A model generated the notes under the pieces. The model ran no database searches and was not told where the DNA came from. It was given only the letters and a program-made list of their open reading frames with translations. Made by a program: the position numbers and the translations under genes. A stretch of DNA of 64,000 bases from an uncultured Gammaproteobacteria bacterium (GTDB lineage: Bacteria > Pseudomonadota > Gammaproteobacteria > Steroidobacterales > Steroidobacteraceae), in assembly GCA_963749775.1 (NCBI GenBank), contig CAVVPB010000003.1, positions 402,004 to 466,003 on the forward strand, read 5' to 3'. Shown here one piece after another: positions 30,683 through 48,450 of this stretch (positions are counted from its first letter, which is position 1; each line of letters starts with the position of its first letter).

Positions 30683-30683
30683 G

Positions 30684-31430
30684 TCATGCGGCCACGCGGG
30701 CTTTTCCAAAGGTGCACTGTGGCGCCAGCGGGCAGCGAGTGCAATTTGGCTTGCTACGCTTGCACAGATGCTGGGCGTGGCGGCTGATCAAAAGATAGGC
30801 GCGGATCCTAGCGTCGAATGTTGCCGGCAGCGTTTCGAGCATGCGCTGTGCCTGCGCATAGGTGGCGGCATAATTAGCGTCCTCCGGCCCCGATTCCACG
30901 CGAACCAGGACGTGAGGACAGCTCGAAGGAACCGCCGCCGCCGGGAAAAGCCGAGCAAATAGTAAAATGCGATCGGCACCGGGATTGCCAATGCCCGGAA
31001 ATGTCTTGAGTAGTTTGCGCGCCTGGGCCGTCGGGAGTTCCGTGAGGGCCAGGTTCAGATCGCCCGCGTATTCGCCCAGGGTCCTTTGTGCGATCTCCTT
31101 CATGCGAGTTGCGCGCAGCTCCGGCACCATGCCGCCTGCCTTCAATGCTTGCGCAAGCCTTGCGGTCGATACCGAGATCAGTTGCTCCGGCGTTGCGCCA
31201 ATGTGGCCGGTTAGCGCTTTCCAGCCCTTCGAGCAGCGATCTTCGCTCGCCGGATAGCCGCAATGCCACCACACCAAGAACCCAAACGGGTCGGTCGGGG
31301 CAAACGGCGACTGTTTGCCGTACAGCGCTTCCAGCGCATCAAGAACTCTTACGATTTGCCGCGTCGCCACGTGTGTTGGGGTTGTTTTCGGGACCGTACG
31401 GGCGTTGCGCGTGGGTGCGATCCGCGACAC
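30684..31430 (-). CDS. Endonuclease III-like HhH-GPD protein with C-terminal Cys cluster
   Basis: ..LKTFPGIGNPGADRILLF.. (HhH-GPD). C-terminal CKRSKPNCTRCPLAPQC. The GTG start overlaps the alkB stop by 1 nt. Confidence 0.7.
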   Translation of the reverse strand: MSRIAPTRNARTVPKTTPTHVATRQIVRVLDALEALYGKQSPFAPTDPFGFLVWWHCGYPASEDRCSKGWKALTGHIGATPEQLISVSTARLAQALKAGGMVPELRATRMKEIAQRTLGEYAGDLNLALTELPTAQARKLLKTFPGIGNPGADRILLFARLFPAAAVPSSCPHVLVRVESGPEDANYAATYAQAQRMLETLPATFDARIRAYLLISRHAQHLCKRSKPNCTRCPLAPQCTFGKARVAA

Positions 31431-32668: not shown

Positions 32669-33412
32669 TCAAGTCGCCGCGAGCGACTTGCGCTTGCGGG
32701 TTTTCAGCCTGCTGGCGGGACGTGGCTCCGCAACCTTCGAGGGCTTGGAACTCCCGCTTGCCTCGCCGTGCAGGGACAGCAGCGACTCCAGGAGACCCTC
32801 ATCCGTGCTCGAACAAACCCCGAGCACGGTTGCCTCGTCGCAGCCTTCGGCGGTGACATAGGCGTGCCCCATGTTGCTGTCGATGTAAATCGATTCGCCC
32901 ACGTTGAGCACTACCGGATCGTAAAACTCGGTGAAAACCTTGATGCCGCCTTCCAAGACATAAATGTACTCCTCGCCCGAATGGCGGACGAGAGCGCCGA
33001 ATTCCTGGGCGCTCTTGGCGCGAATACGCGTCAAGATCGGGATCATGCGTTTCCTGCGCAATTCCGGGCATAGGTAGTGATAGTCGTAGTTCTTGGTGTT
33101 GACGCGCACCGCGTCATCGGTGCGGCCGATGCTGCGGCGCGCAGTCACCGCCGGTTCGACGCTGTCGGCGGCATCGGCGAACAATTCTGAAATTCGGATG
33201 TTGAGCCGCTGGCTCAATTGCACCAACTTATCGTAAGTGAGGGTCAGTCGATCATGCTCGACCTTCGAAAGCGTCGAGACCGGAATGTTGGTGCGCTGAC
33301 TCATTTCCTTCAGCGTCCAACCGTTTCGCGATCGAAGCGAGCGCAGCAGGCTGCCCAGCGTCGATTGACGCGTCTTTACGTCCATAGCAAAAGGCTTGTT
33401 CGCGGAATCCAA
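32669..33412 (-). CDS. XRE-family HTH regulator with C-terminal cupin domain
   Basis: ..LRSLRSRNGWTLKEMSQRTNIPVSTLSKVEHDRLTLTYDKLVQLSQRLN.. then ..EEYIYVLEGGIKVFTE..GESIYIDSNMGH.. Confidence 0.85.
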   Translation of the reverse strand: MDSANKPFAMDVKTRQSTLGSLLRSLRSRNGWTLKEMSQRTNIPVSTLSKVEHDRLTLTYDKLVQLSQRLNIRISELFADAADSVEPAVTARRSIGRTDDAVRVNTKNYDYHYLCPELRRKRMIPILTRIRAKSAQEFGALVRHSGEEYIYVLEGGIKVFTEFYDPVVLNVGESIYIDSNMGHAYVTAEGCDEATVLGVCSSTDEGLLESLLSLHGEASGSSKPSKVAEPRPASRLKTRKRKSLAAT

Positions 33413-33690
33413 TTTGCCCCCCGTCCCTAGCGGTTATTATCGTCCTAATCAGGACGTTTTTCTGAACTTTCGAAACACAAGCCTTTGCGCCCAGAAGTTG
33501 AGGATCCTTAAACGAGGACACTTGCTGCAGCATACCCGCGGTGCATGACAGGTCAACCGCCGGGCGCTGAAATCGCCGAAGAACATAGAGTTTAAGCTTC
33601 AGTGGCGTGAGCGAGTGCGCGCGCCGATCCTGAGTTTCCGTTGAACCGCGGAGAGTCCGGCCGAGCGCGCAATCCCCCGTAAACCTGCAC

Positions 33691-33729
33691 AGAGAATATA
33701 ATTGACAATTCTCTATACAGGACTACTCT
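33691..33729 (+). promoter_or_regulatory. Candidate sigma-70 promoter (TTGACA-N16-TACTCT) embedded in the inverted repeat AGAGAAT-N10-ATTCTCT
   Basis: TTGACA at 33702-33707 and TACTCT at 33724-33729. Inverted-repeat arms at 33691-33697 and 33708-33714. About 150 nt upstream of the TonB-dependent receptor ATG, in the region shared with the divergent XRE-cupin gene. Confidence 0.4.
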
Positions 33730-33877
33730 GTCTCAATCGCGCCATAGTTAAGAGATGCCTTCCGCGACAAGGGATCGATACCGGCGGATTTGAAAGTCCG
33801 CGAAATACATACGAACTCACGGCCGCATCTCTGGCGCCTTGGCAATTGAAAACCCAGAACAAAACAGGGGATGAATC

Positions 33878-36091
33878 ATGAACTCGACACTGAGACTTGC
33901 AATCCTTGCATCGTTAAGCGCGATCGGGCCATTTCTAGCGCAAGAGAGTAGGGCCGCAGATACGGCAGCGCCGGCGGACAGCGACGCGCTCGCGACGATC
34001 GTCGTCACGGCGGAAAAGCGCGAAGAAGCACTCAAGGATGTGCCCATGAGCGTGACCGCCTTGACCGGCAGCAGCCTCGACAAGCTGCAGGACAGAGAAT
34101 TCGCCGACTACGCGGCCCGGGTGCCGGGCCTGTCGCTGGTGAGCGGCGACAGCGGCCTCACCCGCTTGACCTTGCGCGGCCAGAATGCCGGCGGTGACGG
34201 CTCGACGGTGGCTGTTTATTTGGACGAATCGCCGTTCGGATCCAGCACCGCCTTGCTCAACGGTTCCGTCCTCAGTGGCGATTTCGATACCTGGGATCTG
34301 CAACGCATCGAGGTGCTGCGCGGACCGCAAGGCACCTTGTACGGCGCCAATAGCGAAGGCGGTCTTTTGAAGTTTGTCACTGTGGCTCCGGTGCTCGGCA
34401 GCTTCTCCGGCGCCGCCGAAGTAACGGGCGAGAGCGTTGCCCATGGCGGCAATGGCGGCGATGTGCGTGCGGTGCTGAACTTGCCGCTGGGCGACAAGGT
34501 CGCTTTCCGCATCAGCGGATTCGATCAGGATGTCCCCGGCTACATCGACGATCCGTTGAGCGGCCGCAGCGACGTGAACGATGGCCACAAGTACGGCGGC
34601 CGGGCTTCCCTGCTGGCCGCGCCTACGGATGATCTATCCATCCGCTTGACTGCTTCATCGCAGCAATCCAAATACAATGGATCCAACAGCGTCGATATCA
34701 ATCCGGTCACCTTGCAGCCTTCCCATGGCGATCTTACCCAGGAACGTCTTGTGCCCGAGCCGAGCAGTTTCAAGTACGAGAATTACAACGCGACTATCAA
34801 TTGGAATGCCGGACCGTTCAGCATTCTATCGACCACAAGCTACGGAATTTTGAATTCGGATACCGTCAGGGATGCCACCAACGTCCTCCTCCAGGCGACG
34901 CCCTTCCCGGTGACATATGGCGAGGCTCTCGGTTCCGGCGTCGTGCTCGACAACTCGGCAGACCTGCAGAAGTTCACCCAGGAGCTGCGCCTGTCGTCGG
35001 CGGCTTCGGATCGCCTGGAATGGCAAGTCGGCGGGTATTACACGCGTGAAACCGGACTCTTGGATCAGCACCTCAATGCGTTTCGCGGATCCCGGCGGCG
35101 GTTCTCTCGGCAACTTGGAGTTGTTGACACTGGCATCGACTTATAAAGAATGGGCCGGATTCGGCAATCTGACCTACCATTTCAACTCGCAGTTCGATCA
35201 TCCAAGGCGGCGGGCGCTGGTCGAGCAATGAGCAGACTGGCACCGAGACTGTCTCCGGACCCCTCGCAGGGCCCACACCCACCGAATTCAGCACGCCGTC
35301 GAAGGGCCACGTCTTCACCTATTCGCTGGCGCCGCGTTGGCATGTGGATGCGAACACCATGGTGTATGCGACGCCTGGCGACCGGCTTCCGACCGGGCGG
35401 TCCCAACGTGTTGCCGCCTGGCTTACCGGCTGGCGTGCCGCTTGAGTACGGCTCGGACAAGACCACCAACATCGAACTCGGGATTAGGTCGACCCAGCTC
35501 GAGGGTTTGCTGTCCATTGATGTCGCGGCATTCCACATCGATTGGACCAACATTCAGCTCCTCCAAACCTTTAGCGGCTTCACTGTCAATGGCAACGGCG
35601 GCAAGGCACGCAGCCAGGGACTCGAGTGGACCTTTGGATATATGCCGCTCCATGGCCTGACATTGAGCTGGACCGGCGCCTACACCGACGCAAAACTGAC
35701 GGAGCCCGTGCCGGCGCTGCACGGCGATTCCGGTGATCCGCTGCCGTACGCTCCGAAGTGGAGCACCTCGCTCGATGGTGAATACGACTGGGCTGCGTTC
35801 GCGGATTACAAAGGCTTTGTCGGGGGCACCTGGAGCTATGTCGGCACGAGGAGCACTGACTTCGGCAGTTCCGCCGACACCCTCTCGCAGGTAGAGTTGC
35901 CCAGCTACAATACCTACGCGGTTCGCCTCGGCCTCGACAACAATCGTTACCGCATTACGCTGTACGGCAAAAATCTCGGAGACACGCGCGGCATCACCAG
36001 CTATGTGAGCAGCAGTGCGCCGGGCCTTCAGGGCACAATGGGTGTCATTCAGCCGCGAACGATTGGCGTCACACTGTCTGCGAAATTCTAA
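33878..36091 (+). pseudogene. TonB-dependent outer-membrane receptor with three frame disruptions between about 35080 and 35365
   Basis: Signal peptide. Plug ..IVVTAEKREEALKDVPMSVTAL..RGQNAGGDGSTVAVYLDESP..IEVLRGPQGTLYGANSEGG. The barrel ends ..TLSAKF. The conserved path runs frame 2, then frame 3 (..LASTYKEWAGFGNLTYHFNSQFD), then frame 1 (QGGGRWSSNEQ..FTYSLAPRWHVDANTMVYA), then frame 2 (RLATGFRPGGPN..). Confidence 0.85.
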
Positions 36092-36102
36092 GGTCGCAGG
36101 GA

Positions 36103-37161
36103 ATGAAATCGAAACGCGATCTGCACACGGCGGAGGCGGGAATGGCGCAGGTCATGGATTTACCTCATCCGTATTTGCTGTTTCTGGGCGATACCACCGA
36201 AAAAGGTTACGCCAAGACGGCATTCGGGTTGCGCGACTGGGCGCCTGATCGCTGCGTCGGCGAGTGGTCGTGCGCCGGTGCGACCGTCACCACGGAGTTG
36301 CCGCGCTTGACGCCGAAGGAGGCGCGCGCGCGCGGTGCGCGCGCGCTGGTCATCGGTGTCGCGAATACCGGCGGCGTGATCGCCGACAGTTGGATCCCTT
36401 CGCTGGTCGAAGCGCTCGAGTCGGGTCTCGATATCATCAGCGGCATGCACGCGAAGCTCGGCAATGTGCCGCAACTGAAAGCCACCGCGGAGCGGCACGG
36501 CCGCCGACTCATCGATGTGCGTACGCCGCCGAAAAATATCCCGATTGCATCCGGAATCAAGCGCTCCGGGAAACGCCTCCTGACGGTGGGCACCGATTGC
36601 GCTATCGGCAAGAAATACACAGCGCTCGCGCTGGCGCGCGCGTTTGCGCAGCGCGGGCTCGATGCCGATTTTCGAGCCACCGGGCAAACCGGAATCTTGA
36701 TCGCGGGAGGCGGCATCCCGATGGATGCGGTGGTTGCCGATTTTGAGGCCGGGGCAGCGGAATTGCTCAGCCCGGAAGCATCCCCGCAGCACTGGGATGT
36801 GATTGAAGGTCAGGGTTCCTTGTTCCATCCCGCTTATGCCGGCGTATCGCTCGGCCTGCTTCACGGTAGCCAGCCGGATGTCATCGTCGTGTGCCACGAC
36901 CCAGATCGCAAGGAACTTCTCGGTCATGCCGGCTATGCGCTGCCGGAGGTCGCCGAGACGATCGATTTGCACCTGCGGCTCGGCCGCCGCACCAATGCGG
37001 CAATCCGCTGCGCGGGCGTGAGCCTGAATACCTCGAGACTGAGCGCAACCGATGCGGCGCGACTGCTGGCCGCGGAAAGCGCCCGGCTCGGCGTGGCGGT
37101 TGCGGATCCGATGCGAGCCGGCGAGGCATTCGAACGCCTTGTCGACGACTGCCTCGCATAA
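36103..37161 (+). CDS. dgcN: DUF1611-family protein, D-glutamate N-acetyltransferase DgcN-like
   Basis: ..HPYLLFLGDTTEKGYAKTAFGLRDWAPDRCVGEW..LVIGVANTGG..LLTVGTDCAIGKKYTALALARAF..IEGQGSLFHPAYAGVSLGLLHGSQPD.. matches my memory of DUF1611/DgcN. Confidence 0.75.
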   Translation: MKSKRDLHTAEAGMAQVMDLPHPYLLFLGDTTEKGYAKTAFGLRDWAPDRCVGEWSCAGATVTTELPRLTPKEARARGARALVIGVANTGGVIADSWIPSLVEALESGLDIISGMHAKLGNVPQLKATAERHGRRLIDVRTPPKNIPIASGIKRSGKRLLTVGTDCAIGKKYTALALARAFAQRGLDADFRATGQTGILIAGGGIPMDAVVADFEAGAAELLSPEASPQHWDVIEGQGSLFHPAYAGVSLGLLHGSQPDVIVVCHDPDRKELLGHAGYALPEVAETIDLHLRLGRRTNAAIRCAGVSLNTSRLSATDAARLLAAESARLGVAVADPMRAGEAFERLVDDCLA

Positions 37162-37220
37162 TGTTTGACTCACACGACAGTTTGTAGATAACAGCGACTG
37201 TAGTCGCAAGAAGAGAAGCC

Positions 37221-39185
37221 ATGCGTAATCTAACAATCTTGGGCGCAGCGCTCATCACACTGACGACGATGTCCGCTGCCGCGCAAAACAATGCCGCACC
37301 CGCAACGCCGACCACGTCCCCGGCAGCCGCTCCGGTGGCCGTCGCGCTCACCGCGCAGGATGTCAATGCGTGGCTCGACGGCTACATGCCTTACGCGCTG
37401 CGCACCGGCGACATCGCGGGCGCCGTCGTCGTCGTGGTCAAGGATGGCCAGATCCTCACCGAACGCGGCTTTGGGTTTTCCGACGTCGCCAAGCGCACGC
37501 CGGTCGATCCGAAACTGACCTTGTTCAGGCCGGGATCGGTATCGAAACTCTTGACTTGGACCGCGGTGATGCAGCTCGTTGAGCAGGGCAAGATCGATCT
37601 CGATGGCGACGTCAATCAGTACCTCGATTTCAAGATTCCGCCGCGTGACGGAAAGCCGGTGACGATGCGCAATCTCATGCAGCACACCGCCGGCTTCGAA
37701 GAGCAGGCCAAGGGCATCATGTCGGATGATCCCAAATCGCCGAGCTTCGAAGCGCTGCTCAAGCAATGGGTGCCCGAGCGAGTCTTCGCGGTCGGCACGA
37801 CGCCAGCTTACTCCAATTACGGCGCATCCCTCGCCGGCTACATCGTGGAGCGCGTCTCGGGCGAGCCGTTCGACGATTACATCGAGAAGCATATTTTTGC
37901 GCCCCTGGATATGAAATATTCGAGCTTCCGGCAGCCATTGCCAGCGATTCTCGAGCCGCTGATGTCCAAGGGGTATCCGGTGGCGTCGGCGCCGGCAAAG
38001 CCATATGAAATTGTCGGGCCGGCGCCGGCCGGTTCGCTGGCTTCGTCGGGCGAGGACATGGCGCATTTCATGATCGCGCATCTGCAAAATGGCGAATATC
38101 ACGGCAACCGCATTCTGAACGCGGAAACTGCCGAATTGATGCACAACAGCCCGCTCACCATCCTGCCGCCCTTGAATCGCATGGAGCTGGGTTTTTTCGA
38201 AACCAATATCAACGGCCATGAGGTGATCGCGCATCTGGGCGATACGGGGAATTTTCACACCTCGTTGCACTTGTTCCTCAAAGAAGGCGTTGGTTTCTAT
38301 GTCTCCTTCAACAGCTTAGGCAAGGCGGGCGCCGCCGGCGGACTGAGAGGAGCATTGTTCGACGACTTCGCGGATCGTTACTTTCCGGTGGCCGAATCGA
38401 ACGCCCGTGTTGATGCCAAGACGGCCGCCGACCACGCGGCGATGCTGAAGGGCCGCTGGGCCAATTCGCGCGGCTCGCAATCGAGCTTTTTGGCCGCACT
38501 CGGATTGGTTGGTCAAACCAAGGCCGGCGTCAACGCCAAGGGTGAGCTCGTCGTTCCCTTCCTGGGGTTGAACGGCAAGCCGCGCAACTGGGTCGAGACC
38601 GCGCCGTTCGTGTGGCGCGACACCGGTAGCCATGAGCGCCTGGCGGCCAAAGTGGTCGACGGCAAGGTCGTGCGTTTCAGCATCGACGGCATTTCCCCGT
38701 TTATGGTGTTCGATCGGGTGCCTTGGTATGAAAATTCCACGTGGTTGCTGCCCGCCGTGTGCGTGGCCCTTGCCGCGCTGCTGCTGACCGCCCTGTTCTG
38801 GCCGATTACTGCCATCGTTCGGCGCCGCTTTGGCGCCACGGTGGCGCTGGCGCCGGATGATTTGCGCGTGTATCGCTTCAGCAAGGTGGGATCGATCTTG
38901 ATCCTCGCCGGCCTGGGGGTGTGGGCGTTCACCTTTTTCCGCATGCTCAATGATTTCAACAATCTTAGCGCCAAGTTCGACTCGACCCTGCACTTCACGC
39001 AGCTTTTCGGCGCTCTCGCGTTCATCGTGGGTTCCGCCTTGATCCTGTGGAATCTGTGGAAGGTGTGGAGCGGCACGCGTCGCTGGCCGGCCAAGCTCTG
39101 GAGCATCGTGCTCGCGCTATCGGCATCCGTCGTCATGTGGGTGGCGGTCACATTCAATCTGATCGGCTTTGGGGCGAACTTCTGA
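37221..39185 (+). CDS. Beta-lactamase-fold serine hydrolase with C-terminal four-TM anchor
   Basis: Signal peptide. SxxK in PGSVSKLLTW. YxN in YSNYG. Four hydrophobic helices in the last 150 aa or so. Its stop overlaps the next start (TGATG). Confidence 0.85.
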   Translation: MRNLTILGAALITLTTMSAAAQNNAAPATPTTSPAAAPVAVALTAQDVNAWLDGYMPYALRTGDIAGAVVVVVKDGQILTERGFGFSDVAKRTPVDPKLTLFRPGSVSKLLTWTAVMQLVEQGKIDLDGDVNQYLDFKIPPRDGKPVTMRNLMQHTAGFEEQAKGIMSDDPKSPSFEALLKQWVPERVFAVGTTPAYSNYGASLAGYIVERVSGEPFDDYIEKHIFAPLDMKYSSFRQPLPAILEPLMSKGYPVASAPAKPYEIVGPAPAGSLASSGEDMAHFMIAHLQNGEYHGNRILNAETAELMHNSPLTILPPLNRMELGFFETNINGHEVIAHLGDTGNFHTSLHLFLKEGVGFYVSFNSLGKAGAAGGLRGALFDDFADRYFPVAESNARVDAKTAADHAAMLKGRWANSRGSQSSFLAALGLVGQTKAGVNAKGELVVPFLGLNGKPRNWVETAPFVWRDTGSHERLAAKVVDGKVVRFSIDGISPFMVFDRVPWYENSTWLLPAVCVALAALLLTALFWPITAIVRRRFGATVALAPDDLRVYRFSKVGSILILAGLGVWAFTFFRMLNDFNNLSAKFDSTLHFTQLFGALAFIVGSALILWNLWKVWSGTRRWPAKLWSIVLALSASVVMWVAVTFNLIGFGANF

Positions 39186-40195
39186 TGTCAGGCCTTACGC
39201 TACGCATTGAGGTCGAGAAGCTGCGTCTGGCCGCGCCGTTTCGCATCTCGGGCTTTGTATTCGAGGAGCAGGACGTCGTCGTCGCGACGCTCGAGGATGG
39301 CGAGCATCGCGGCCGCGGCGAAGCCTCGGGCGTTTATTATTTGAACGATACCGCGAAGGAAATGGTCGCCGCGATCGAGGCCGTGAGGCGTGTGATCGAG
39401 GCGGGCATCGATCGCGCGGAACTGCAACGATTGCTTCCCGCCGGCGGTGCTCGCAATGCGATCGATTGCGCGCTGTGGGAACTGGATGCGCACCGCCTCG
39501 GCGCAACCGTGTGGGAACTCGCCGGATTGCCGGCCCCCAGACCGTTGGTGACGACTTTCACGCTGAGCGCCGACGATCCGGCGGTCATGGCCGCGGGCGC
39601 GCGCAAATATGCGCAAGCTCGGTCGCTGAAGCTGAAATTGACGGGCGATCTGGATCTCGATATCGCGCGCGTGAATGCGGTGCGTGCGGCGCGCCCCGAG
39701 GCCTGGATCGGCGTCGACGCCAATCAGGGCTACGCCATCAATGCGCTGGATGCGCTGGTGGGCGCTCTGGTCGCCGCCAATGTGTCGTTGCTCGAACAAC
39801 CGCTCAAGCGTGGGCGTGAGGCTGATCTTAGCGGTTTTACATCGAAGATTCCGATCGCGGCCGACGAAAGCGCTCTGACACTCGCCGACGTTGCCGGTCT
39901 GGTCGGTCGCTTCGATGTCATCAATATCAAGCTGGACAAGTGCGGTGGCTTGACCGAAGGACTCGCCATGGCACAAGCGGCGAAACGACTGGGGCTTCAG
40001 GTCATGGTCGGCAACATGGTGGGAACGAGTCTGGCGATGGCACCCGCGTTTGTACTCGGCCAGCTGTGCGACGTGGTGGATCTGGACGGTCCTATATTTC
40101 TCGCTAAAGATCGAACGCCCGGCATGATCTACGTGAACGGCACCGCATGGAGCGGCGAGAATGTCTGGGGGGGGTCGCACTCGTACGCGGCATGA
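39185..40195 (+). CDS. dgcA: Enolase-superfamily (MLE subgroup) racemase/epimerase, N-acetyl-D-Glu racemase DgcA-like
   Basis: KxK in SLKLKLTG, then GVDANQGY, LLEQPL, IAADES and INIKLDKCGG. ATG 39185 overlaps the upstream stop. Confidence 0.75.
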   Translation: MSGLTLRIEVEKLRLAAPFRISGFVFEEQDVVVATLEDGEHRGRGEASGVYYLNDTAKEMVAAIEAVRRVIEAGIDRAELQRLLPAGGARNAIDCALWELDAHRLGATVWELAGLPAPRPLVTTFTLSADDPAVMAAGARKYAQARSLKLKLTGDLDLDIARVNAVRAARPEAWIGVDANQGYAINALDALVGALVAANVSLLEQPLKRGREADLSGFTSKIPIAADESALTLADVAGLVGRFDVINIKLDKCGGLTEGLAMAQAAKRLGLQVMVGNMVGTSLAMAPAFVLGQLCDVVDLDGPIFLAKDRTPGMIYVNGTAWSGENVWGGSHSYAA

Positions 40196-41502
40196 GCGCG
40201 AGCCAACACACGTGGTTCGGCCAGCCGCGCGGCCTCACCATCCTGTTTCTGACCGAGATGTGGGAGCAATTCTCCTACTACGGCATGCGCGCGTTGTTGG
40301 TCTATTACATGACCAAGCAATTGCTGCTCGGACAGGAAAGGGCATCGTTCATCTACGGTACCTACACGGCGATGGCGTACTTAACGCCGATTTTCGGCGG
40401 CATGATCGCCGATCGCTGGCTCGGCAAGCGGCGTGCGGTGATTATCGGCGGCAGCGTCATGGCCGCCGGTCATTTCATGATGACCTTCGAGCCGCTGTTC
40501 TACGTTGCCCTCGCGACGATTGCGCTCGGCAACGGATTGTTTCTTCCCAGTTTGCCGAGCCAGATCGATGGCCTGTACCGCCCGGACGATCAGCGCCGCG
40601 GCTGGGCTTACAACGTCTACTACGTCGGCATCAACATCGGTGGGTTTCTGGCGCCGCTGGTCTGCGGCACGCTCGGAGAATTCTATGGCTGGCACTTCGG
40701 CTTCGGCGCAGCCGGAGTCGGGATGTTGTTGGGGCTGATCATCTATATATTCGGCAGCCGCTACTTGCCTGAAGAGGTTCGCGTTGCGAGAAACAATGCG
40801 CAGCCCGTCACCTTTGCCGGACACTACCGCGCGACGTTCATACTCCTGTTTTCGGTAGGACTTGCGGTCACCGTATTTCGGGGTGCTTACGAGCAAGTGG
40901 GCAACACGGTGGCACTGTGGGCGGATGTCGGTATTGATCGTGCGACTTCGCTGATGAGCATTCCAATGACGTGGTTCCAGTCGTTGAATCCATTGTTGGT
41001 GATTGCAATGACACCTGCGCTGCTTGGCCGCTGGCGCCGGCGTGCCGATGCCGGACACCGCGATTCATCGATGAGAAAAATGGCGCTGGGTGCGCTCATC
41101 GTCGCGGCGGCCTATCTCTTGCTCGCGATCGTGGCATGGGTATCAGGATCAGGCCGCGCGAGTTGGCTGTGGCTGGTGTTGTTTTTCGTTATCTTCACCT
41201 TCGGCGAACTCTACATCTTGCCGACTGGATTGGGGCTATTCGCGCGGCTGGCGCCGATCGGATTCGGCGCCACAACAGTCGCAGCCTGGTTCCTGGCCAT
41301 CTTCAGCGGCAGCCTATCGGCCGGCTTGGTCGGCATGCTGTGGAGTAGCACGAGCCACGCTCAATTCTTTGCATTCCTCACCCTGATCGCTGCGATCGCA
41401 GCGGCCATGCTGTTCGCGCTCGACCGCACGGCGCGGCGCATCGAGGCGCAGCGGGCGAGTGAAATCATCTCTTTAAGCGCAATTCAATCGGAGATCGTAT
41501 GA
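40192..41502 (+). CDS. POT/PTR2-family proton-dependent di/tripeptide permease
   Basis: ..GQPRGLTILFLTEMWEQFSYYGMRALLVYYM.. and ..TPIFGGMIADRWLGKRRAV... ATGA overlap with dgcA. Confidence 0.9.
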   Translation: MSASQHTWFGQPRGLTILFLTEMWEQFSYYGMRALLVYYMTKQLLLGQERASFIYGTYTAMAYLTPIFGGMIADRWLGKRRAVIIGGSVMAAGHFMMTFEPLFYVALATIALGNGLFLPSLPSQIDGLYRPDDQRRGWAYNVYYVGINIGGFLAPLVCGTLGEFYGWHFGFGAAGVGMLLGLIIYIFGSRYLPEEVRVARNNAQPVTFAGHYRATFILLFSVGLAVTVFRGAYEQVGNTVALWADVGIDRATSLMSIPMTWFQSLNPLLVIAMTPALLGRWRRRADAGHRDSSMRKMALGALIVAAAYLLLAIVAWVSGSGRASWLWLVLFFVIFTFGELYILPTGLGLFARLAPIGFGATTVAAWFLAIFSGSLSAGLVGMLWSSTSHAQFFAFLTLIAAIAAAMLFALDRTARRIEAQRASEIISLSAIQSEIV

Positions 41503-43070
41503 AACGTGCAGCCCTCGTGCCATTTTTGTTTGCGTGTACAGCGGCGCTCGCAGCGCCCCCGGCCGGCTTCGAGGCCCGCGTGGAGAGACTGCGCAAGGAG
41601 ATCGGCGTTCCCGGCATGTCGATAGCCATCGTCGAGAACGACAAGGTCACGTTCGCCAAAGGTTTCGGCGTCAAGCGCCTCGGAGTTCCCGATCCGGTTG
41701 ATGCGGATACGATTTTCCCCACCGGCTCGACAGGCAAGGCCTTCACCGTAGCAGCGCTCGGCATCCTCGTCGATCAGGGCAAAATTAGCTGGGACGACAA
41801 GGTGATCGATCGATTGCCGGGCTTTCAAATGTACGACGCGTGGGTGACGCGCGAGATGACGATACGCGATCTGCTCGTGCATCGCAGCGGCTTGGGGTTG
41901 GGCGCCGGGGATTTATTGTTCGTGCCGCGCACCAACTTGAGCCGCGCGGAGTCGGTTCGACGCCTGCGCTACATCAAGCCGGCCACCAGCTTTCGCAGCG
42001 CCTATGCGTACGACAATATTCTGTACATGGTCGCGGGCCAGTTGATCGAAGAGGTGACCGGCGAAACCTGGGAAAAATTTACCGCCGACCATGTGCTCAA
42101 GGCCGCCGGAATGCTGCATTCCACCACCGACAATGAAGGGCACTTCTCAAACCCGGATCGATCTCAGCCGCATGCGCGCATGAACGGCGGTCTGCGCGGA
42201 GTGGGCGATCAATCGGTGCTCAATGAGCGTGACAATCTCGGCAGCAATGCATCGCCCGCCGGCGGCTTGGCGGTCAGCGCGAATGACATGGCCCGCTGGC
42301 TGATGATTCAGCTGGATGGGGGCGGCCTTCCCAACAATGGCGGCCGATTGTTCAGCCAGGCGGCGCACGATGAAATGTGGAAGCCGGTGGTGCTGCAGCC
42401 GGTAGCGCCTCCCTCAGGGGTAATGGCGGCCACTCAGCCCATGTTCAACACCTACGCGCTCGGTTGGGATATCAGAGACTATCGCGGCACCAAGATCGTA
42501 TGGCACGGCGGCGCGGTATTCGGATCTCAAACCGCGGTGGTGCTGATTCCCGACAAGCGTGTGGGATTCTCAATCGAGATCAACAGCGAGGACGGCGAGA
42601 TCATCGTCGGACTAATGTACGAGCTGCTCGATCACTATCTTGGACTGCCCAAGGATACGTGGCCGGAGAAAATCCGCGCGCAAAAGCATGAGCGGGTGCA
42701 GGCAGCGCTGAAGATGTACCAATCAGCCGCGGCAGCGCCCGCCAAGGTCGGGCCGTCGCTGCCGCTCGATCGCTACGTCGGCAGCTATGCCGATCCTTGG
42801 TACGGCAATATCGAAATTGCGCAGGCAAATGGAACGCTCACGATCGACTTCAAGTCGACGCCGCGCATGGGTGGCACCCTGGAGCACTGGCAATACGATA
42901 GCTTCATCACCCGCTTCGATGATAAGACCATCGAGCCGGCGTATGTGACATTTGGCCTCGACGCGGACGGTAAGGTGGAACACATCACAATGAAACCGGT
43001 GTCGCCGCTTGCCGATTTCAGTTACGACTACAAGGATCTCTTGTTCACGCCCGCAAACCAGTCGAAATGA
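41499..43070 (+). CDS. Beta-lactamase-fold serine hydrolase with DUF3471-like C-terminal domain
   Basis: Signal peptide. SxxK in TGSTGKAFT. YxN in YAYDNILY. C-terminal ..YVGSYADPWYGNIEIAQANGTLTIDF... ATGA overlap with the permease gene. Confidence 0.85.
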   Translation: MKRAALVPFLFACTAALAAPPAGFEARVERLRKEIGVPGMSIAIVENDKVTFAKGFGVKRLGVPDPVDADTIFPTGSTGKAFTVAALGILVDQGKISWDDKVIDRLPGFQMYDAWVTREMTIRDLLVHRSGLGLGAGDLLFVPRTNLSRAESVRRLRYIKPATSFRSAYAYDNILYMVAGQLIEEVTGETWEKFTADHVLKAAGMLHSTTDNEGHFSNPDRSQPHARMNGGLRGVGDQSVLNERDNLGSNASPAGGLAVSANDMARWLMIQLDGGGLPNNGGRLFSQAAHDEMWKPVVLQPVAPPSGVMAATQPMFNTYALGWDIRDYRGTKIVWHGGAVFGSQTAVVLIPDKRVGFSIEINSEDGEIIVGLMYELLDHYLGLPKDTWPEKIRAQKHERVQAALKMYQSAAAAPAKVGPSLPLDRYVGSYADPWYGNIEIAQANGTLTIDFKSTPRMGGTLEHWQYDSFITRFDDKTIEPAYVTFGLDADGKVEHITMKPVSPLADFSYDYKDLLFTPANQSK

Positions 43071-43157
43071 AATGAAATTCATGCCTGGCGCGACCCTGGC
43101 CGTTGCCCTGATCTTGGCTGTTGCGCAGGAAGTGCCGTCGTTGAGCGAGCGTGCGCC

Positions 43158-44300
43158 ATGAACAACATTCCGGCAGCGACGAGCGCCTCGTGGTTTCAGC
43201 GCTATCTGTTGCCGGGCCTGGCGTTCAAGGCGGTGGTCATCGGCGGCGGGTATGCCACGGGACGCGAGCTGGCCGAGTTCTTTTTGCCGAGCGGGCCGCA
43301 GGGCGGTTTGCTCGCCATCCTGCTGGCGATGCTGATTTGGAGCGCCGTGTGCGCGGTGACATTCTGCTTGGCGCGGGCGACCGCCAGTTGGGATTACAGG
43401 ACGTTCTTCAAGAATCTGTTGGGCCCGTTATGGGTGCTCTTCGAAGCCGCTTACGTGTTGTTCATCATTTTGATTCTGGCGGTGTTCGGCGCAGCAGCGG
43501 GCGCGATCGGCGCGGCCGTGCTGGGGTGGCCTCCGATCGCGGGTACCTGCTGTCTCATCATCAGCATCAGTCTCGTGGCGGCCTACGGCAACGCCTCGGT
43601 GGAGCAGCTGTTTAAGTGGGTCTCCATATTCCTGTACGCGACCTATGGTGTCTTTGTCGTTTTGTCGCTGTTTGCGTTTGGCGATAAGATCCTGACGCAT
43701 CTGTCGATACCTGCGCCGCGCGATGGCTGGGTGTCCGGCGGACTGACATACGCGAGCTATAACGTCGTGGGGGCCGTGATCATACTTCCCGTGCTTAGGC
43801 ATCTTCGGAGCACCAAGGATGCGCTTGCTGCCGGGATGCTGGCGGGTCCCCTTGCGATGATTCCTGCATTGCTCTTTTTCATCTGCATGATTGCCTACTA
43901 TCCGCAGATCGGCAATGAGTCTCTGCCATCGGATTTCCTGCTGCGGCGTCTGAATTTTCCGGCGTTCCATTTCCTGTTTCAGCTCATGATCTTTCTGGCG
44001 CTGCTGGAAAGCGGTACCGGTTGCGTGCACGCGATCAACGAACGCGTCGCGCAGGCCTACGCCGCCCGCAAAGGGAAATCCCTATCGAAGATGCTTCGCC
44101 TCTCGATCACCGGCGCGCTGCTGGTGGGTTCGATATTTCTGGCGGCACAATTCGGATTGGTGACGCTGATTGCGCGGGGCTATCGCGGTTTGGCCTACGT
44201 ATTCCTGGGCGTCTTCGTACTGCCGGTCATGACCTTGGGCGTATGGCAGCTCTGTACGTCGAATAGAATCCTAAGACCCTTGAATCAATCTGACAGGTAG
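43158..44300 (+). CDS. Polytopic membrane protein, YkvI-like putative amino-acid transporter
   Basis: ..AFKAVVIGGGYATGRELAEFFL.. and about 11 predicted TM segments. Family assigned from memory. Confidence 0.55.
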   Translation: MNNIPAATSASWFQRYLLPGLAFKAVVIGGGYATGRELAEFFLPSGPQGGLLAILLAMLIWSAVCAVTFCLARATASWDYRTFFKNLLGPLWVLFEAAYVLFIILILAVFGAAAGAIGAAVLGWPPIAGTCCLIISISLVAAYGNASVEQLFKWVSIFLYATYGVFVVLSLFAFGDKILTHLSIPAPRDGWVSGGLTYASYNVVGAVIILPVLRHLRSTKDALAAGMLAGPLAMIPALLFFICMIAYYPQIGNESLPSDFLLRRLNFPAFHFLFQLMIFLALLESGTGCVHAINERVAQAYAARKGKSLSKMLRLSITGALLVGSIFLAAQFGLVTLIARGYRGLAYVFLGVFVLPVMTLGVWQLCTSNRILRPLNQSDR

Positions 44301-44306
44301 GCAGCA

Positions 44307-46037
44307 ATGAGTACGGTTTCCATCAGTCGGCGCGACCTGCTCACCCTGGGATTGCTGGCGTCGATTCCCGGGGGACTGCGCTGGCAAGCCGCGGGCGCGG
44401 CGCCGGCAAGCAACGCCAACGCGATGCGCACCCTGGATCAATTCATCGCGGGCTACTGCGACGCCATGAATGCGCCGGGACTGACCCTCGGGCTCGCCAG
44501 TGCGGACGGACCCATCCGAATCTCGTCCTATGGGTATGTCGACCTTGCGGCGAGAATCCCGGTGTCGACCTCGCACCTGTTCGAAATCGGTTCGATAACC
44601 AAGTCCTTTGTGGGGCTCACCCTTCTGCAGATGCACGAGGAGGGCAAAGTAGACCTCCAGGCGCCGATTCTTCGCTACCTTCCCTGGCTCGCGATGGAAA
44701 CCGATTTCGGCGACATCCTCGTCCACCATCTATTGACGCATTCCGGCGGCATGCCGGATGACGCCCCGTTATTCCCGAGCTCCCCACAGCGCCGGCCCCG
44801 TCAGGCGTTCAAGCCCGGCTCGGAGTTTCATTACTGCAATTGGGGCTACGACGTGCTGGGGCATCTGATTGAAAAGCTGGATGGGCGGCCGTGGCCCGCG
44901 GCCGTAACCGCGCGCATCTTAAAGCCAGCCGGCATGTCCGATACCGCGGCGACGATCACCAGCGCCGTGCGTCCGCGCATTGCCCAGAGCTACGTGCCGT
45001 TGCACGACGATCGCCCCTATCCGCGCCGCGGCCCGCTGGTGCCCGCGGGCAATTTGGCCGTTGAATTTGCGGCCGGATCGATAGCCTCGACGCCCCAAGA
45101 CATGACGAAATACATGCAAATGATTTTGAACCGGGGCGCGGTTCGCGGCGGCAGAATTATTTCCGAGGAGAGCTTCAGGCTCTTCTCGACGCCGCACATA
45201 GCCGCGCCCATTTTTGGTCCAACCGCCGGCTATGGCTACGGGATTGCGGTGGATCAGTTCGATGGACACGTGCGACTCAGGCATACGGGCGGCATGGTGT
45301 CCTTCATGTCGGCCATGCAGCTCGACCTGGACGCGCGAATCGGGGCCTTTGCATCGGTTAACGCCCAATTGGGCTATCGACCCAATCCGGTGGCAGAATT
45401 TGCGCTGCAGCTGCTGCGCTCCGGGGCGGAGCACTCAAAGCCGCCGGCAACTCCCGCCTATGACGCGGCCGCAAAGGTCGACGACGCGCGGGGCTACGAC
45501 GGCGTGTATACCTGCGGCGATGGACGCCGCCTCGAAGTAAACAGTGCCGGCGACCGTCTGAGGCTCATCATCGCGGGCCGCAGTGTTCCCCTGCAGCAAT
45601 CCGACGACGGTACCTTTGTCGCGGATCATCCCGGGTTTGATCTTTTTCCCGTGGTATTCGAGCGCGAGCGTGAATCACCCGCCGAAACCAGCTCCAAGGC
45701 TGCCGTCACCGCTCTCGCTTACGGGCCGGATTGGTATGCTCGTGCAGGGCATCAGGTTCGGCCGCAACCCGAGCCGTCAACCGAACTCGCCAAATACACC
45801 GGGAAGTATTACTCAGAGAATCCGTGGAACGGCGTCGTGCGGGTCGTGCAGCGGCAGGGCCAGCTCTGGATGGGAGGAACCGACCCCTTGATTTCCGTTG
45901 GAGATCACTTGTTTAGGATCGGCGCGAGCCCCTCACTACCGGAGACCGCGGAGTTCTCTGAGTGGGGGGATGATAAGGCCAACTTGCTTTGGTATAGCGG
46001 TGTCGAGTATCGAAGAATCGGCGAAGCCGATGCGTGA
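44307..46037 (+). CDS. Tat-signal beta-lactamase-fold serine hydrolase
   Basis: MSTVSISRRDLLTLGLLASIPG. SxxK in IGSITKSF. YxN in YCNWGY. HTGG later. Confidence 0.85.
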   Translation: MSTVSISRRDLLTLGLLASIPGGLRWQAAGAAPASNANAMRTLDQFIAGYCDAMNAPGLTLGLASADGPIRISSYGYVDLAARIPVSTSHLFEIGSITKSFVGLTLLQMHEEGKVDLQAPILRYLPWLAMETDFGDILVHHLLTHSGGMPDDAPLFPSSPQRRPRQAFKPGSEFHYCNWGYDVLGHLIEKLDGRPWPAAVTARILKPAGMSDTAATITSAVRPRIAQSYVPLHDDRPYPRRGPLVPAGNLAVEFAAGSIASTPQDMTKYMQMILNRGAVRGGRIISEESFRLFSTPHIAAPIFGPTAGYGYGIAVDQFDGHVRLRHTGGMVSFMSAMQLDLDARIGAFASVNAQLGYRPNPVAEFALQLLRSGAEHSKPPATPAYDAAAKVDDARGYDGVYTCGDGRRLEVNSAGDRLRLIIAGRSVPLQQSDDGTFVADHPGFDLFPVVFERERESPAETSSKAAVTALAYGPDWYARAGHQVRPQPEPSTELAKYTGKYYSENPWNGVVRVVQRQGQLWMGGTDPLISVGDHLFRIGASPSLPETAEFSEWGDDKANLLWYSGVEYRRIGEADA

Positions 46038-46863: not shown

Positions 46864-48450
46864 ATGGATGAGGATATCCGTGGAGGCCTCGTGCACCGGC
46901 CAGATGCCAGACGATCTGCGGGGATGAGATTTGTGGTCGCAGGACTGTTCACTGCACTGGCAGCCGGTTGCGCCGCGCGTGGGCCCCCTGCCGACTCGGC
47001 CTCGGCGCCGCTCTTGCATCGCGAGGATCTACTGTGGATCGAACGCACGTCTTTCGGTCTCGATACCGCGAGCGTCTTGAACTATCGCCGGCTTGGACGC
47101 GAAGTGTATCTCGACCGCCAGCTGCACCCGCGCGAGGAAGCGCTGCCGGCGCCGATCGCTGCGCAGATCGGTGCACTCGAGGTGACCCGTTTGGATCCCC
47201 AGTCATTGCTTGCCGAAGTCAACGCGAAATACAAGTCCATCAATGCGATGTCCGACGGGCCCGACAAGGAGCAGGCGCGCAAGGCGCTCAACGAGCACGG
47301 TAATAAATTGGCGTATGAAGCCACCCGCCGCGACCTGCTGCGTGCGGTGTATTCACCGGACCAGCTGCGAGAGCAAATGGTTTGGTTCTGGCTCAATCAC
47401 TTCAGTGTGTTTCAGTACAAGGCCAATCTGCGCTGGTTGGTCGGCGACTACGAGGAGCGCGCCATCAGACCCAATGTCTTCGGGCACTTCAAGGATCTGG
47501 CTCTTGCCGTGCTCGAGCATCCGGCCATGCTGCAGTATCTGGACAACAACCAGAATGCCGTTGGGCACATCAATGAAAATTATGCGCGCGAGCTGATGGA
47601 ACTGCACACGCTGGGAGTCGAAGGGGGCTATTCACAGCAGGATGTGCAGGAGCTGGCGCGGGTGTTGACCGGGGTGGGCGTGAATGCAGGCGATGCGCCG
47701 CATCTTAAGGCTGATTGGCAGCGGTTGTACCTTCGCAGCGGCGCCTTTGAATTCAATCCCGCCCGGCACGACTTCGGCAGCAAGACGCTTCTTGGCCATG
47801 CCATCAAGTCGACGGGCTTTGCTGAAGTCGAGGAGGCCGTCGACCTGATCGTCAGGCAGCCCGCCTGTGCCCGCTTCATATCACGCAAACTGGCCATCTA
47901 TTTCGTCGCGGACAATCCTCCGGCACCCCTGGTTGAGCGAATGGCGCAGACCTTTCTGCGCACCAACGGCGACATCACCGCGGTGCTGCGCGTCATGTTT
48001 CTGTCTCGAGAATTCAACGCAGCCCTCGGCGGTAAATTCAAGGATCCGGTGCGCTTCGTGGTGTCGGCCGTGCGCTTTGCCTACGACGACAGGCCGATTA
48101 GCAATACACGGCCCATGCTCAATTGGCTCAACTCGCTCGGTGAGGGGCCTTATGGCCGCCAGACTCCCGACGGTTATCCCTTAACCGAACTGAACTGGGC
48201 CAGCTCGGGCCAAATGAGCCGGCGTTTTGAGATCGCCCGCGCAATCGGCGCGGGCAATGCCGGCCTGTTCGACCCGCAAGAGGGCGGCGCGGCAAGTGCC
48301 GGCGGTTTCCCGCAGCTGTCGAGTCGGCTGTACTTCGAGGCGGTCGAGCCGCTGCTTGCGACGCGCACCAAGGATGCGCTCAATCGCGCGAACTCGCAGC
48401 AGGAATGGAACCTGTTCCTGCTCTCATCGCCGGATTTCAGCTATGAATAG
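46864..48450 (+). CDS. DUF1800 family protein
   Basis: ..WFWLNHFSVF..ENYARELMELHTLGV..GYSQQDV.. The ATG at 46924 (MRFVVAGLFTALAAGCA, lipobox-like) is an alternative start. Confidence 0.75.
   Translation: MDEDIRGGLVHRPDARRSAGMRFVVAGLFTALAAGCAARGPPADSASAPLLHREDLLWIERTSFGLDTASVLNYRRLGREVYLDRQLHPREEALPAPIAAQIGALEVTRLDPQSLLAEVNAKYKSINAMSDGPDKEQARKALNEHGNKLAYEATRRDLLRAVYSPDQLREQMVWFWLNHFSVFQYKANLRWLVGDYEERAIRPNVFGHFKDLALAVLEHPAMLQYLDNNQNAVGHINENYARELMELHTLGVEGGYSQQDVQELARVLTGVGVNAGDAPHLKADWQRLYLRSGAFEFNPARHDFGSKTLLGHAIKSTGFAEVEEAVDLIVRQPACARFISRKLAIYFVADNPPAPLVERMAQTFLRTNGDITAVLRVMFLSREFNAALGGKFKDPVRFVVSAVRFAYDDRPISNTRPMLNWLNSLGEGPYGRQTPDGYPLTELNWASSGQMSRRFEIARAIGAGNAGLFDPQEGGAASAGGFPQLSSRLYFEAVEPLLATRTKDALNRANSQQEWNLFLLSSPDFSYE

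Follow-up and report, generated by a model that had tools for sequence, protein, structure and literature searches.

Eight genes lying in one direction at 33878-46037 of a 64,000-nucleotide stretch of contig CAVVPB010000003.1, from an uncultured gammaproteobacterium of the Steroidobacteraceae, encode a TonB-dependent receptor, a DUF1611 protein, an enolase-superfamily epimerase, three serine hydrolases of family S12 and two permeases. The stretch as a whole is called the window here, and all coordinates are counted from its first letter. It is probable, in our judgement, that these genes form a single repressor-controlled operon specifying an envelope-spanning catabolic route for small D-amino-acid peptides whose signature is D-glutamate (D-Glu) or another acidic D-residue. 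This salvage of D-peptides and D-Glu is well supported by context, since the gene set recurs in related genomes, its promoter/operator is conserved, and the relatives add periplasmic accessory proteins. From the genes, their families and predicted locations, the conservation of the set and its promoter/operator, we infer which substrates are used, in which direction they flow and what chemistry is performed.

In the proposed route, a divergently encoded XRE-cupin protein would bind a dyad that overlaps the operon promoter and be released once its cupin domain binds an inducer. The TonB-dependent receptor would carry peptides across the outer membrane, a step that in the window is either lost through three frameshifts or obscured by a wrong sequence. 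Three S12 hydrolases, one tethered to the inner membrane, one exported by Sec and one by the twin-arginine translocation (Tat) system, would trim the peptides in the periplasm, a role suggested by their nearest characterised relatives, which are D-stereospecific peptidases. The POT permease would import di- and tripeptides, and a LeuT-fold permease of YkvI type would import a small product, plausibly a free D-amino acid. In the cytoplasm, the DUF1611 protein and the racemase would convert D-Glu by way of an N-acyl intermediate to the L-form, which would pass into ordinary metabolism; this conversion is the step that ordinary metabolism cannot perform. All products other than the DUF1611/epimerase pair are predicted to lie outside the cytoplasm or in a membrane. 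The natural source that suggests itself most readily is the stem peptides of peptidoglycan, which as substrate are a guess. An earlier note on this DNA had already proposed an envelope-spanning pipeline for D-peptides; comparative genomics strongly supports the overall idea, with corrections to two of its parts, the membership of the pair in DgcN/DgcA and the receptor gene, which is disrupted as sequenced.

The gene set and its control region in related genomes

Related loci were collected by comparing a DUF1611 alignment of 10 sequences (one of 23 sequences proved too diverse) with one genome per GTDB species. At least 598 places matched; the best 80 were analysed, which are the nearest relatives of the query, and the frequencies reported here hold for this clade and not for all DUF1611 genes. 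Proteins of the locus were traced by tblastn, and components were counted in the 48 loci with a DUF1611 protein at least 60% identical to that of the window and at least 8 kb on both flanks. The closest relative, metagenome contig L001 (DUF1611 protein 96% identical), carries the same eight genes with the receptor intact. Across the 48 loci, the XRE-cupin regulator, usually divergent, is found in 37, the epimerase in 36, the TonB-dependent receptor in 34 and the 380-residue YkvI-type permease in 29. The membrane-anchored S12 hydrolase (S12A) is present in 35, the S12 hydrolase with a DUF3471 domain (S12B) in 32 and the POT permease in 23. Two families absent from the window also recur, Amidohydro_3 (23/48) and M19 (14/48), and the Tat-signal hydrolase of the window, sought at 45% identity or more, occurs in none (0/48) and is present in L001.

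In 62 of the 80 loci, one or more S12 genes are found within 10 kb, and the epimerase gene directly follows that of the membrane-anchored S12 hydrolase in 37/59 homologous loci. Seven loci below 60% identity have the epimerase at most. Unbiased clustering of open reading frames (ORFs) from 55 S12-bearing loci brought out no other recurrent families; its clusters 9-16, which are antisense, were set aside as shadow ORFs of GC-rich genes. The regulator, receptor, DUF1611 protein, membrane-anchored hydrolase and epimerase are all retained by Steroidobacteraceae contigs at 79-82% identity, which vary in the POT permease, the 380-residue permease, Amidohydro_3, M19 and a DAO-family oxidase. Beyond this family the set extends to Woeseiaceae, Duganella, one Chthoniobacterales and one Acetobacteraceae metagenome-assembled genome (MAG), to the Sphingomonadales (Sphingopyxis, Sphingobium, Sphingomonas, Novosphingobium, Sphingosinicella) and to Rhodanobacteraceae/Xanthomonadales (Rudaea, Pseudoxanthomonas, Proluteimonas), many of the carriers belonging to soil, freshwater and sediment lineages. 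Two gene orders are seen. In one, the regulator is followed by an optional M19 gene, receptor, DUF1611, S12A, epimerase, POT, an optional permease and S12B; in the other, it is followed by S12A, epimerase, POT, an optional M19 gene, receptor, DUF1611, permease and S12B. Thus, the association survives rearrangement.

The control region is shared as well. The earlier note had described a dyad, AGAGAAT-N10-ATTCTCT, together with a promoter-like TTGACA-N16-TACTCT, and both are present. The dyad core, at 33691-33714, has a single occurrence in the window, where 0.12 would be expected at up to 2 mismatches; its 7-nt arms are as described, and the full dyad is longer. The note had also begun the operon at 33691, which is the start of the dyad core, the first gene having its ATG at 33878. 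The dyad is kept in orthologous upstream regions and reaches perfect 13-nt arms in two Rudaea loci (L013, L016). More broadly, the promoter/operator TTGACAATTCTC..ATCAGGA is kept upstream of related operons across several orders, with the extended consensus TTGACAATTcTCtaATcAGGAtcAT. The related loci, 1.61 Mb in all, contain the 12-mer TTGACAATTCTC 46 times with at most one mismatch; in 45 cases a gene for a TonB-dependent receptor, an M19 protein, S12A or the epimerase begins less than 450 nt downstream on the same strand. At least one copy so positioned is present in 35 loci, and 10 loci, in which the gene set falls into two units, have two copies. This distribution speaks strongly for a promoter/operator common to the related loci.

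The divergent regulator, which the earlier note had read as XRE/cupin, has the corresponding Pfam matches, and the position of the dyad suggests repression by this adjacent protein. A second element is the compact palindrome TCCTAATCAGGA, found nowhere else in the window; it precedes the regulator start by about 30 nt and was scored as terminator-like in a scan. It is also found in L001, L040, L071 and L074, again adjoining the regulator start in L071 and L074, and resembles the outer arms of the operator consensus. On this slight evidence, it may be an auto-regulatory site.

The DUF1611 protein and the epimerase

A D-glutamate catabolic pathway composed of DgcR, DgcN and DgcA was reportedly described by Yu et al. 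in 2023 (ISME J 17:537). In this system, as in the window, a DUF1611 protein is paired with an enolase-superfamily racemase of the MLE subgroup. Differences from it are evident in the context: the two genes of the window are split by a hydrolase gene, the regulator is an XRE-cupin protein rather than the LysR protein of the canonical locus as named by the Prokaryotic Genome Annotation Pipeline (PGAP), and the pair stands amid a TonB-dependent receptor, S12 hydrolases, a POT permease and a YkvI-type permease, where the canonical locus has a dicarboxylate/amino-acid symporter. The DgcN-DgcA route for D-Glu is cited in PMC10845958, PMC12363236 and PMC11747546.

The DUF1611 protein has the two-domain architecture of DgcN (PF17396, the Rossmann-like DUF1611_N, 1.8e-23; PF07755, the P-loop-like DUF1611, 1e-69). 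Its best NCBIfam match is DgcN itself (NF041892), at 451.1 bits against a cut-off of 480 and over profile positions 1-324 of 326; relatives in the clade score 429-442, and a protein that PGAP names dgcN (L089, Sphingobium yanoikuyae) scores 523. It is 50% identical over 327 residues to PDB 7xrj, which we take to be the characterised DgcN. Likewise, the best NCBIfam match of the epimerase is DgcA (NF042940), aligned end to end at 380.1 bits against a cut-off of 400, with clade relatives at 353-381 and canonical dgcA products at 423 (L089) and 415 (L078). In a neighbour-joining tree of 90 DUF1611 sequences (a distance method, read here without support values), the proteins from S12 contexts form a large clade of their own, with 7xrj and the dgcN product of L089 across the root. 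The epimerases of hydrolase-containing loci also form their own neighbour-joining clade, apart from 4gfi, the canonical pair and YcjG. For the orthologous pair on plasmid pKN1 of Sphingobium yanoikuyae, PGAP gives the names "DUF1611 domain-containing protein" and "dipeptide epimerase"; that locus reads, in PGAP terms, XRE regulator on one side and on the other serine hydrolase, dipeptide epimerase, TonB-dependent receptor, DUF1611 protein, hypothetical protein, serine hydrolase and dipeptidase.

The identification as DgcN and DgcA made in the earlier note is right as to the nearest models and is not borne out as to membership, both proteins falling short of the equivalog cut-offs and into separate clades. 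Judged by sequence, the pair is a sister subfamily to DgcN/DgcA tied to a peptide-handling context, and it is not filed here as a member. It probably works like DgcN/DgcA. Because the scores lie below the cut-offs and the clades are separate, N-acetylation and racemisation of free D-Glu by these proteins is something that we infer and do not read from family membership.

Another view of the same pair starts from the epimerase alone. Its PDB matches are 4gfi (2e-69) and YcjG of Escherichia coli (1jpd, 5e-56, 38% identity), and its motifs LKLK, GVD, LLE, AAD and NIK align with YcjG, keeping the KxK, D, E, D, K set; by YcjG, these presumably supply two catalytic lysines and three metal ligands. 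It also has the sequence DLDGP. A DxD motif behind the last barrel strand is typical of dipeptide epimerases and binds the ammonium group of the dipeptide. DLDGP is common to the window epimerase, to YcjG and to 4gfi, which groups with canonical DgcA, so that the motif has no power to tell DgcA from YcjG. The operon could then carry out murein-peptide salvage of YcjG type, in which L-Ala-D-Glu or other X-D-Glu dipeptides imported by the POT permease are epimerised, L-Ala-D-Glu to L-Ala-L-Glu, and left to housekeeping dipeptidases for cleavage, the DUF1611 protein having a different role. This we regard as unlikely. The conserved residues, the PGAP name of the Sphingobium ortholog, the di/tripeptide permease in the operon and the lack in the 64-kb window of any dipeptidase able to free D-Glu all agree with it. 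The profile scores point the other way, with the DgcA model at 380 bits against 238.7 for the YcjG model (NF011708, cut-off 343), and all tested clade members at 353-381 against 215-242. Co-occurrence of the DUF1611 protein with the epimerase throughout the clade also argues for a two-enzyme step as in DgcN/DgcA.

Known modules for murein-peptide recycling offer a further comparison. In E. coli, mpaA is found with ycjG, the gene of an L-Ala-D/L-Glu epimerase, and Bacillus subtilis has ykfABCD. Like the window, these modules join an enolase-superfamily epimerase acting at the alpha-carbon of an N-acylated D-Glu to peptidases and peptide importers. The window locus differs in having no M14 (MpaA), S66 (LdcA) or NlpC/P60 homolog, with S12 hydrolases instead, and in having a DUF1611 partner, a TonB-dependent receptor and a dedicated repressor; the missing MpaA and LdcA homologs count against the YcjG-type alternative as well.

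Some genomes carry more than one copy of these genes. Two DUF1611 genes lie within 10 kb in L015 (Sphingobium limneticum), L019 (Sphingobium sp. Leaf26) and L043 (Sandaracinobacteroides hominis), the first two also with two epimerase genes. In these genomes, one DUF1611 gene belongs to the peptide-type set and the other stands beside an Amidohydro_3 gene, each with its own XRE-cupin regulator. The region at 1-6801 of L089 (S. yanoikuyae p-A-Sy) suggests that dgcN/dgcA may be tied to outer-membrane uptake and amide hydrolases outside this clade as well.

Exported hydrolases, transport and the nature of the substrate

All three hydrolases score 182-207 bits on the Pfam Beta-lactamase domain (PF00144; cut-off 27), with E-values of 6.8e-61 for the product of 37221-39185 (S12A), 3.8e-58 for that of 41499-43070 (S12B) and 2.7e-53 for that of 44307-46037. 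A C-terminal DUF3471 match is strong in S12B (4e-27) and weak in the third protein. The catalytic motifs are SVSK106, YSN197 and HLG in S12A, STGK77, YDN171 and HGG in S12B, and SITK96, YCN176 and HTG326 in the third, which also has the twin-arginine sequence SRRDLL. A Sec signal is present in both S12A and S12B, and S12A has in addition four hydrophobic helices (residues 505-652); these readings agree with an earlier assignment of one membrane-anchored, one Sec-exported and one Tat-exported enzyme. Of the earlier description as three paralogous SxxK/YxN hydrolases, the motifs stand; mutual identity is 24-26%, so that on sequence they are distant family members and not recent paralogs. The Tat-signal hydrolase, by its distribution, is an accessory gene of the window and its closest relative only.

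The best PDB matches of S12A are 9sn1, Pab87 (2qmi), Flp and alkaline D-peptidase; S12B matches IS11, Pab87, ClbP and alkaline D-peptidase; and the Tat-signal hydrolase matches Pab87 best (3e-32). D-amino-acid amidase, the R61 DD-peptidase and D-aminopeptidase are also among the nearest solved relatives. Comparison with S12 D-peptidases of known structure (Pab87, 2qmi; Bacillus cereus alkaline D-peptidase, 4y7p; Ochrobactrum anthropi D-aminopeptidase, 1ei5; D-amino-acid amidase, 2dns; Streptomyces R61, 1cef; ClbP, 4e6x/7mdc) illustrates both kinship and distance. Shared features are the fold and the SxxK/YxN/HxG motifs, the C-terminal DUF3471 that two of the window hydrolases have in common with Pab87, and the anchoring of one of them as in ClbP. 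By contrast, the sequences are remote (E 1e-14 to 3e-32), and the anchor consists of four helices placed after an extra beta domain. The membrane-anchored hydrolase has no detectable similarity to the membrane domain of ClbP, matches to ClbP being limited to the periplasmic domains of the other two hydrolases. An AlphaFold2 model of the anchored enzyme is of low confidence (predicted local distance difference test, pLDDT, 46) and gives the same domain order. Pab87 is D-stereospecific and has been proposed to process environmental D-amino-acid peptides (PMC2651629).

It is very improbable that these hydrolases are beta-lactamases or DD-peptidases of AmpH/PBP4B type and that the operon serves resistance or upkeep of the cell's own wall. 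The domain name is shared, and the best equivalog matches, though weak, are AmpH and class C beta-lactamase; the scores are 54-84 bits against cut-offs of 266 for AmpH and 415 for class C, and the linkage to a receptor, importers, a catabolic pair and a repressor also speaks against it.

In an intermediate DUF1611 clade (L062, L065, L067, L070, L073), a serine hydrolase about 28-32% identical to the Tat-signal hydrolase of the window is found near the DUF1611 gene, directly adjoining it in L065, L067, L070 and L073 and about 4 kb off in L062. L062, L065, L067 and L070 also have an Amidohydro_3-like gene.

The two permeases differ in how firmly they are placed. The POT permease matches PF00854 (PTR2) at 8.5e-42 and belongs to TIGR00924 (273.6 bits, cut-off 130). 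The 380-residue permease has no Pfam or NCBIfam match even at E up to 10; the Joint Genome Institute (JGI) names its homologs "uncharacterized membrane protein YkvI," and its AlphaFold2 model (pLDDT 73) resembles MhsT, CodB, ApcT, BasC, LeuT and Nramp with TM-scores of 0.5-0.63. YkvI (COG3949) belongs to the APC superfamily. For the families named in the earlier note, hidden Markov model searches recovered DUF1611, Beta-lactamase (three times), DUF3471, MR_MLE and PTR2 and, for the receptor, Plug; the YkvI-like label, without any profile match, is carried by the homolog names and the LeuT-fold model.

The receptor is recognisable as a TonB-dependent receptor, as the earlier note had it, and is not one intact ORF. 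Against the intact 735-residue ortholog of L001 (94% nucleotide identity), it has three +1 insertions at about 35080, 35199 and 35370, none of them in a homopolymer. The reading frame opened by the ATG at 33878 ends at 35146 (stop codon 35144-35146); receptor-like sequence then runs through the other two frames and returns to the original one, the insertions summing to +3 and the frame being regained after about 290 nt. The Plug domain lies in the ORF at 33878-35146 and a match to the C-terminal barrel of TIGR01783 in that at 35150-36091, so that no single ORF of the window holds both Plug and a 22-strand barrel, three frameshifts intervening. The orthologs of L001 and L003 are intact, with Plug and TonB_dep_Rec_b-barrel domains.

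The receptor data fit pseudogenisation. Over the 21 kb aligned with L001 (95.9% identity), the three insertions are the only frame-breaking indels inside gene bodies, a further indel at 31390 lying at a gene end. With the three bases removed, the receptor has the highest dN and dN/dS of nine compared genes (dN/dS 0.25 vs 0.03-0.15). These features, and the position of the insertions outside homopolymers, tell against local assembly errors in a gene that is intact in the organism, an explanation that competes with the pseudogene alone and that we rate as a serious prospect, somewhat short of an even chance. In its favour, the insertions restore the frame, and split genes occur in other MAG-derived loci (receptor in L048, 7703-9897, and L054, 6965-8900; epimerase in L055, 5233-5936). 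These cases suggest that frameshift artefacts or pseudogenes are not rare in these assemblies.

A more specialised substrate is another reading to be weighed: the operon might serve catabolism or re-uptake of a particular D-amino-acid secondary metabolite, such as a cyanopeptide, a lipopeptide, poly-gamma-glutamate or a siderophore-like peptide, by analogy with mlr or PvdM/pyoverdine. We consider this quite improbable. In the mlrABCD system of sphingomonads, which acts on microcystin, a peptide rich in D-amino acids including D-Glu, MlrB is a beta-lactamase-fold serine peptidase and MlrD a POT-family transporter. The pairing of such a peptidase with a POT transporter is found in the window too; unlike mlr, the recurrent families include no homolog of MlrA or MlrC, and a TonB-dependent receptor and the DUF1611/epimerase pair are there instead. 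Also consistent with a specific metabolite are the habit of TonB-dependent receptors of serving defined, scarce ligands and the anchoring of one hydrolase in the membrane, as in ClbP. The receptor, on the other hand, matches siderophore-receptor models weakly (52-59 bits against cut-offs of at least 223), neither nonribosomal peptide synthetase nor siderophore genes are among the recurrent families, and a ubiquitous substrate accords better with a locus spread across many lineages of soil, freshwater and sediment.

Accessory proteins of the related loci bear on both the metabolite and the salvage readings. Genes of the M19, Amidohydro_3 and D-amino-acid oxidase families were found nowhere in the 64-kb window. 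The M19 homologs of related loci have Tat signals, and in most of them the metal ligands of the HxD motif and the bridging Glu are gone (H to L, D to P, E to Q); they lie directly upstream of the receptor at L003:6600-7781, L008:6568-7719, L013:6544-7740, L035:6626-7768 and in others. They are thus PvdM-like and probably non-hydrolytic. The Amidohydro_3 proteins of related loci have Sec signals, and Amidohydro_3 is the D-aminoacylase family. An N-acetyl-D-glutamate deacetylase has been cited as a member of that family (PMC9537276). In the part of their paper that concerns PvdM homologs, Sugue et al. 2022 (PMC9305348) describe non-hydrolytic periplasmic homologs beside TonB-dependent receptors in Sphingomonas, Sphingobium, Novosphingobium, Duganella and Steroidobacter, and speculate on a link to periplasmic metabolism of D-amino-acid peptides. 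The ligand-less M19 proteins next to receptors follow the pattern of that section, which is a further point for a specific metabolite; the same section of PMC9305348 makes no mention of the DUF1611/epimerase/S12/POT/YkvI set, and the window itself has no M19 gene.

Several points weigh against an envelope-spanning salvage of D-peptides and D-Glu. The reading draws wholly on sequence and genomic context, and the survey covers one clade of DUF1611 genes. The receptor gene is broken as sequenced in the window. Both members of the DUF1611/epimerase pair stand below the equivalog cut-offs and apart from canonical DgcN/DgcA, and S. yanoikuyae has a canonical locus of another kind (LysR, dgcN, dgcA and a dicarboxylate/amino-acid symporter). 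The epimerase, given its DxD motif, may have X-D-Glu dipeptides as its substrates and not N-acetyl-D-Glu. Esterases and beta-lactamases, too, are found among S12 enzymes. Nothing at the locus is specific for muropeptides or gamma-D-glutamyl bonds: muramidase, amidase, MpaA and LdcA-type genes are absent from it, and it encodes no enzyme for the gamma-D-glutamyl bond, no N-acetylmuramoyl (MurNAc)-L-Ala amidase and, as the earlier note had pointed out, no N-acetyl-L-Glu deacetylase.

In keeping with the earlier note, which knew of no description of the combined operon, literature searches turned up no account of the combined locus, DgcN/DgcA only as a route for free D-Glu, and a single partial overlap in the PvdM paper (PMC9305348). 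Tentatively, then, the locus can be put forward as an undescribed and widespread "D-peptide utilisation locus" of soil, freshwater and sediment Proteobacteria, a peptide counterpart of TonB-dependent polysaccharide utilisation loci that would scavenge D-Glu peptides from necromass (peptidoglycan stem peptides) with a dedicated receptor, S12 D-peptidases, two importers, a new DUF1611/enolase subfamily and one conserved XRE-cupin operator. A large share of the organic nitrogen of soils and waters, and one with slow turnover, consists of D-amino acids and peptidoglycan remnants. To our knowledge, few routes for uptake and breakdown of D-amino-acid peptides are known in Gram-negative bacteria. If the proposal is true, the locus would provide a genetic marker for consumers of necromass peptides in abundant soil groups (Steroidobacteraceae, sphingomonads), a first candidate TonB-dependent receptor for D-amino-acid peptides, a physiological role for each of three uncharacterised S12 types, for a YkvI-type permease and for an unnamed DUF1611/epimerase subfamily, and a defined pair of operator and regulator. 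Several cultured strains carry the locus, so that the hypothesis is directly testable; among them are Povalibacter uvarum DSM 26723 (L012), Rudaea cellulosilytica DSM 22992 (L013), Sphingopyxis terrae NBRC 15098 (L028), Sphingobium limneticum DSM 25076 (L015), Duganella aceris SAP-35 (L060) and Sphingobium yanoikuyae CC4533, on pKN1 (L088).

Layout of the region and neighbouring genes

The ORF list and its translations place all eight operon genes on the + strand, bearing out the earlier count of eight co-directional genes, and the tight junctions described earlier can all be read in the sequence: TGATG at 39185, where the stop of the S12 hydrolase and the start of the epimerase overlap by 1 nt, ATGA at both 40192 and 41499, and a spacing of 6 nt between the genes that end at 44300 and begin at 44307. 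The remaining intergenic gaps are 11, 59 and 87 nt. Proteins predicted by NCBI/ENA on the source contig are the same, with one difference: the DUF1611 protein begins there at Met14. A terminator scan found no terminator-like sites in the intergenic gaps of the operon, and Rfam (E up to 0.1) found no element in the region, including a 5' untranslated region of about 150 nt, and thus no match to a riboswitch or leader RNA. The features are collected in Table 1.

Table 1. Coordinates of the operon genes and of the elements in the divergent control region
Feature	Position	Strand	Basis or remark
Divergent XRE-family helix-turn-helix and cupin regulator (maximal ORF; true start maybe slightly downstream)	32669-33412	-	Pfam HTH_19/HTH_3 and Cupin_2
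Compact palindrome TCCTAATCAGGA, possible auto-regulatory site	33443-33454	unstranded	Adjoins 5' end of regulator
Operator-like dyad CCTGCACAGAGAAT-N10-ATTCTCTATACAGG	33684-33721	unstranded	12/15 complementary per extended arm; core 7-nt arms perfect
Sigma-70-type promoter: -35 TTGACA 33702-33707, 16-nt spacer, -10 TACTCT 33724-33729	33702-33729	+	Read from sequence; overlapped by dyad
TonB-dependent receptor gene, disrupted	33878-36091	+	Plug, C-terminal match to TIGR01783, three-frame translation
DUF1611 protein, DgcN-like putative D-Glu N-acetyltransferase, cytoplasmic; alternative start 36142	36103-37161	+	DUF1611_N and DUF1611
S12 serine hydrolase (S12A), 654 aa, Sec signal, beta-rich middle domain, four C-terminal transmembrane helices	37221-39185	+	Beta-lactamase
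Enolase-superfamily racemase/epimerase, DgcA-like / dipeptide-epimerase-like	39185-40195	+	MR_MLE_N/C
POT/PTR2 proton-dependent di/tripeptide permease	40192-41502	+	PTR2 and MFS_1, TIGR00924
Secreted S12 hydrolase (S12B) with C-terminal DUF3471 (lipocalin-like), "CubicO-group" type (JGI name)	41499-43070	+	
Polytopic inner-membrane transporter, 380 aa, YkvI-type, LeuT/APC fold	43158-44300	+	Homolog name and AlphaFold2 model
Tat-signal S12 hydrolase, weak DUF3471 match	44307-46037	+	Beta-lactamase

Within the 87-nt gap, a 26-codon ORF (MPGATLAVALILAVAQEVPSLSERAP) at 43083-43161, read by eye, ends in an ATGA overlap with the start of the YkvI-type permease. It is probably not a gene, several relatives having little or no gap at this point.

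On the upstream flank, 29258-32629 of the - strand holds genes for a major facilitator superfamily transporter, a 248-residue ORF and a protein of the fatty-acid-desaturase family. These are common to the window and L001, do not appear in the other contigs for which gene calls were listed, and are probably unrelated to the operon. The downstream stretch is likewise not conserved with the locus. It comprises a DUF1800-type protein at 46864-48450, assigned by Pfam through the L001 ortholog, and an ORF at about 48450-49657 with a Tat-like signal (RRHFLKLSAAALL), which is suspected to be a member of DUF1501.

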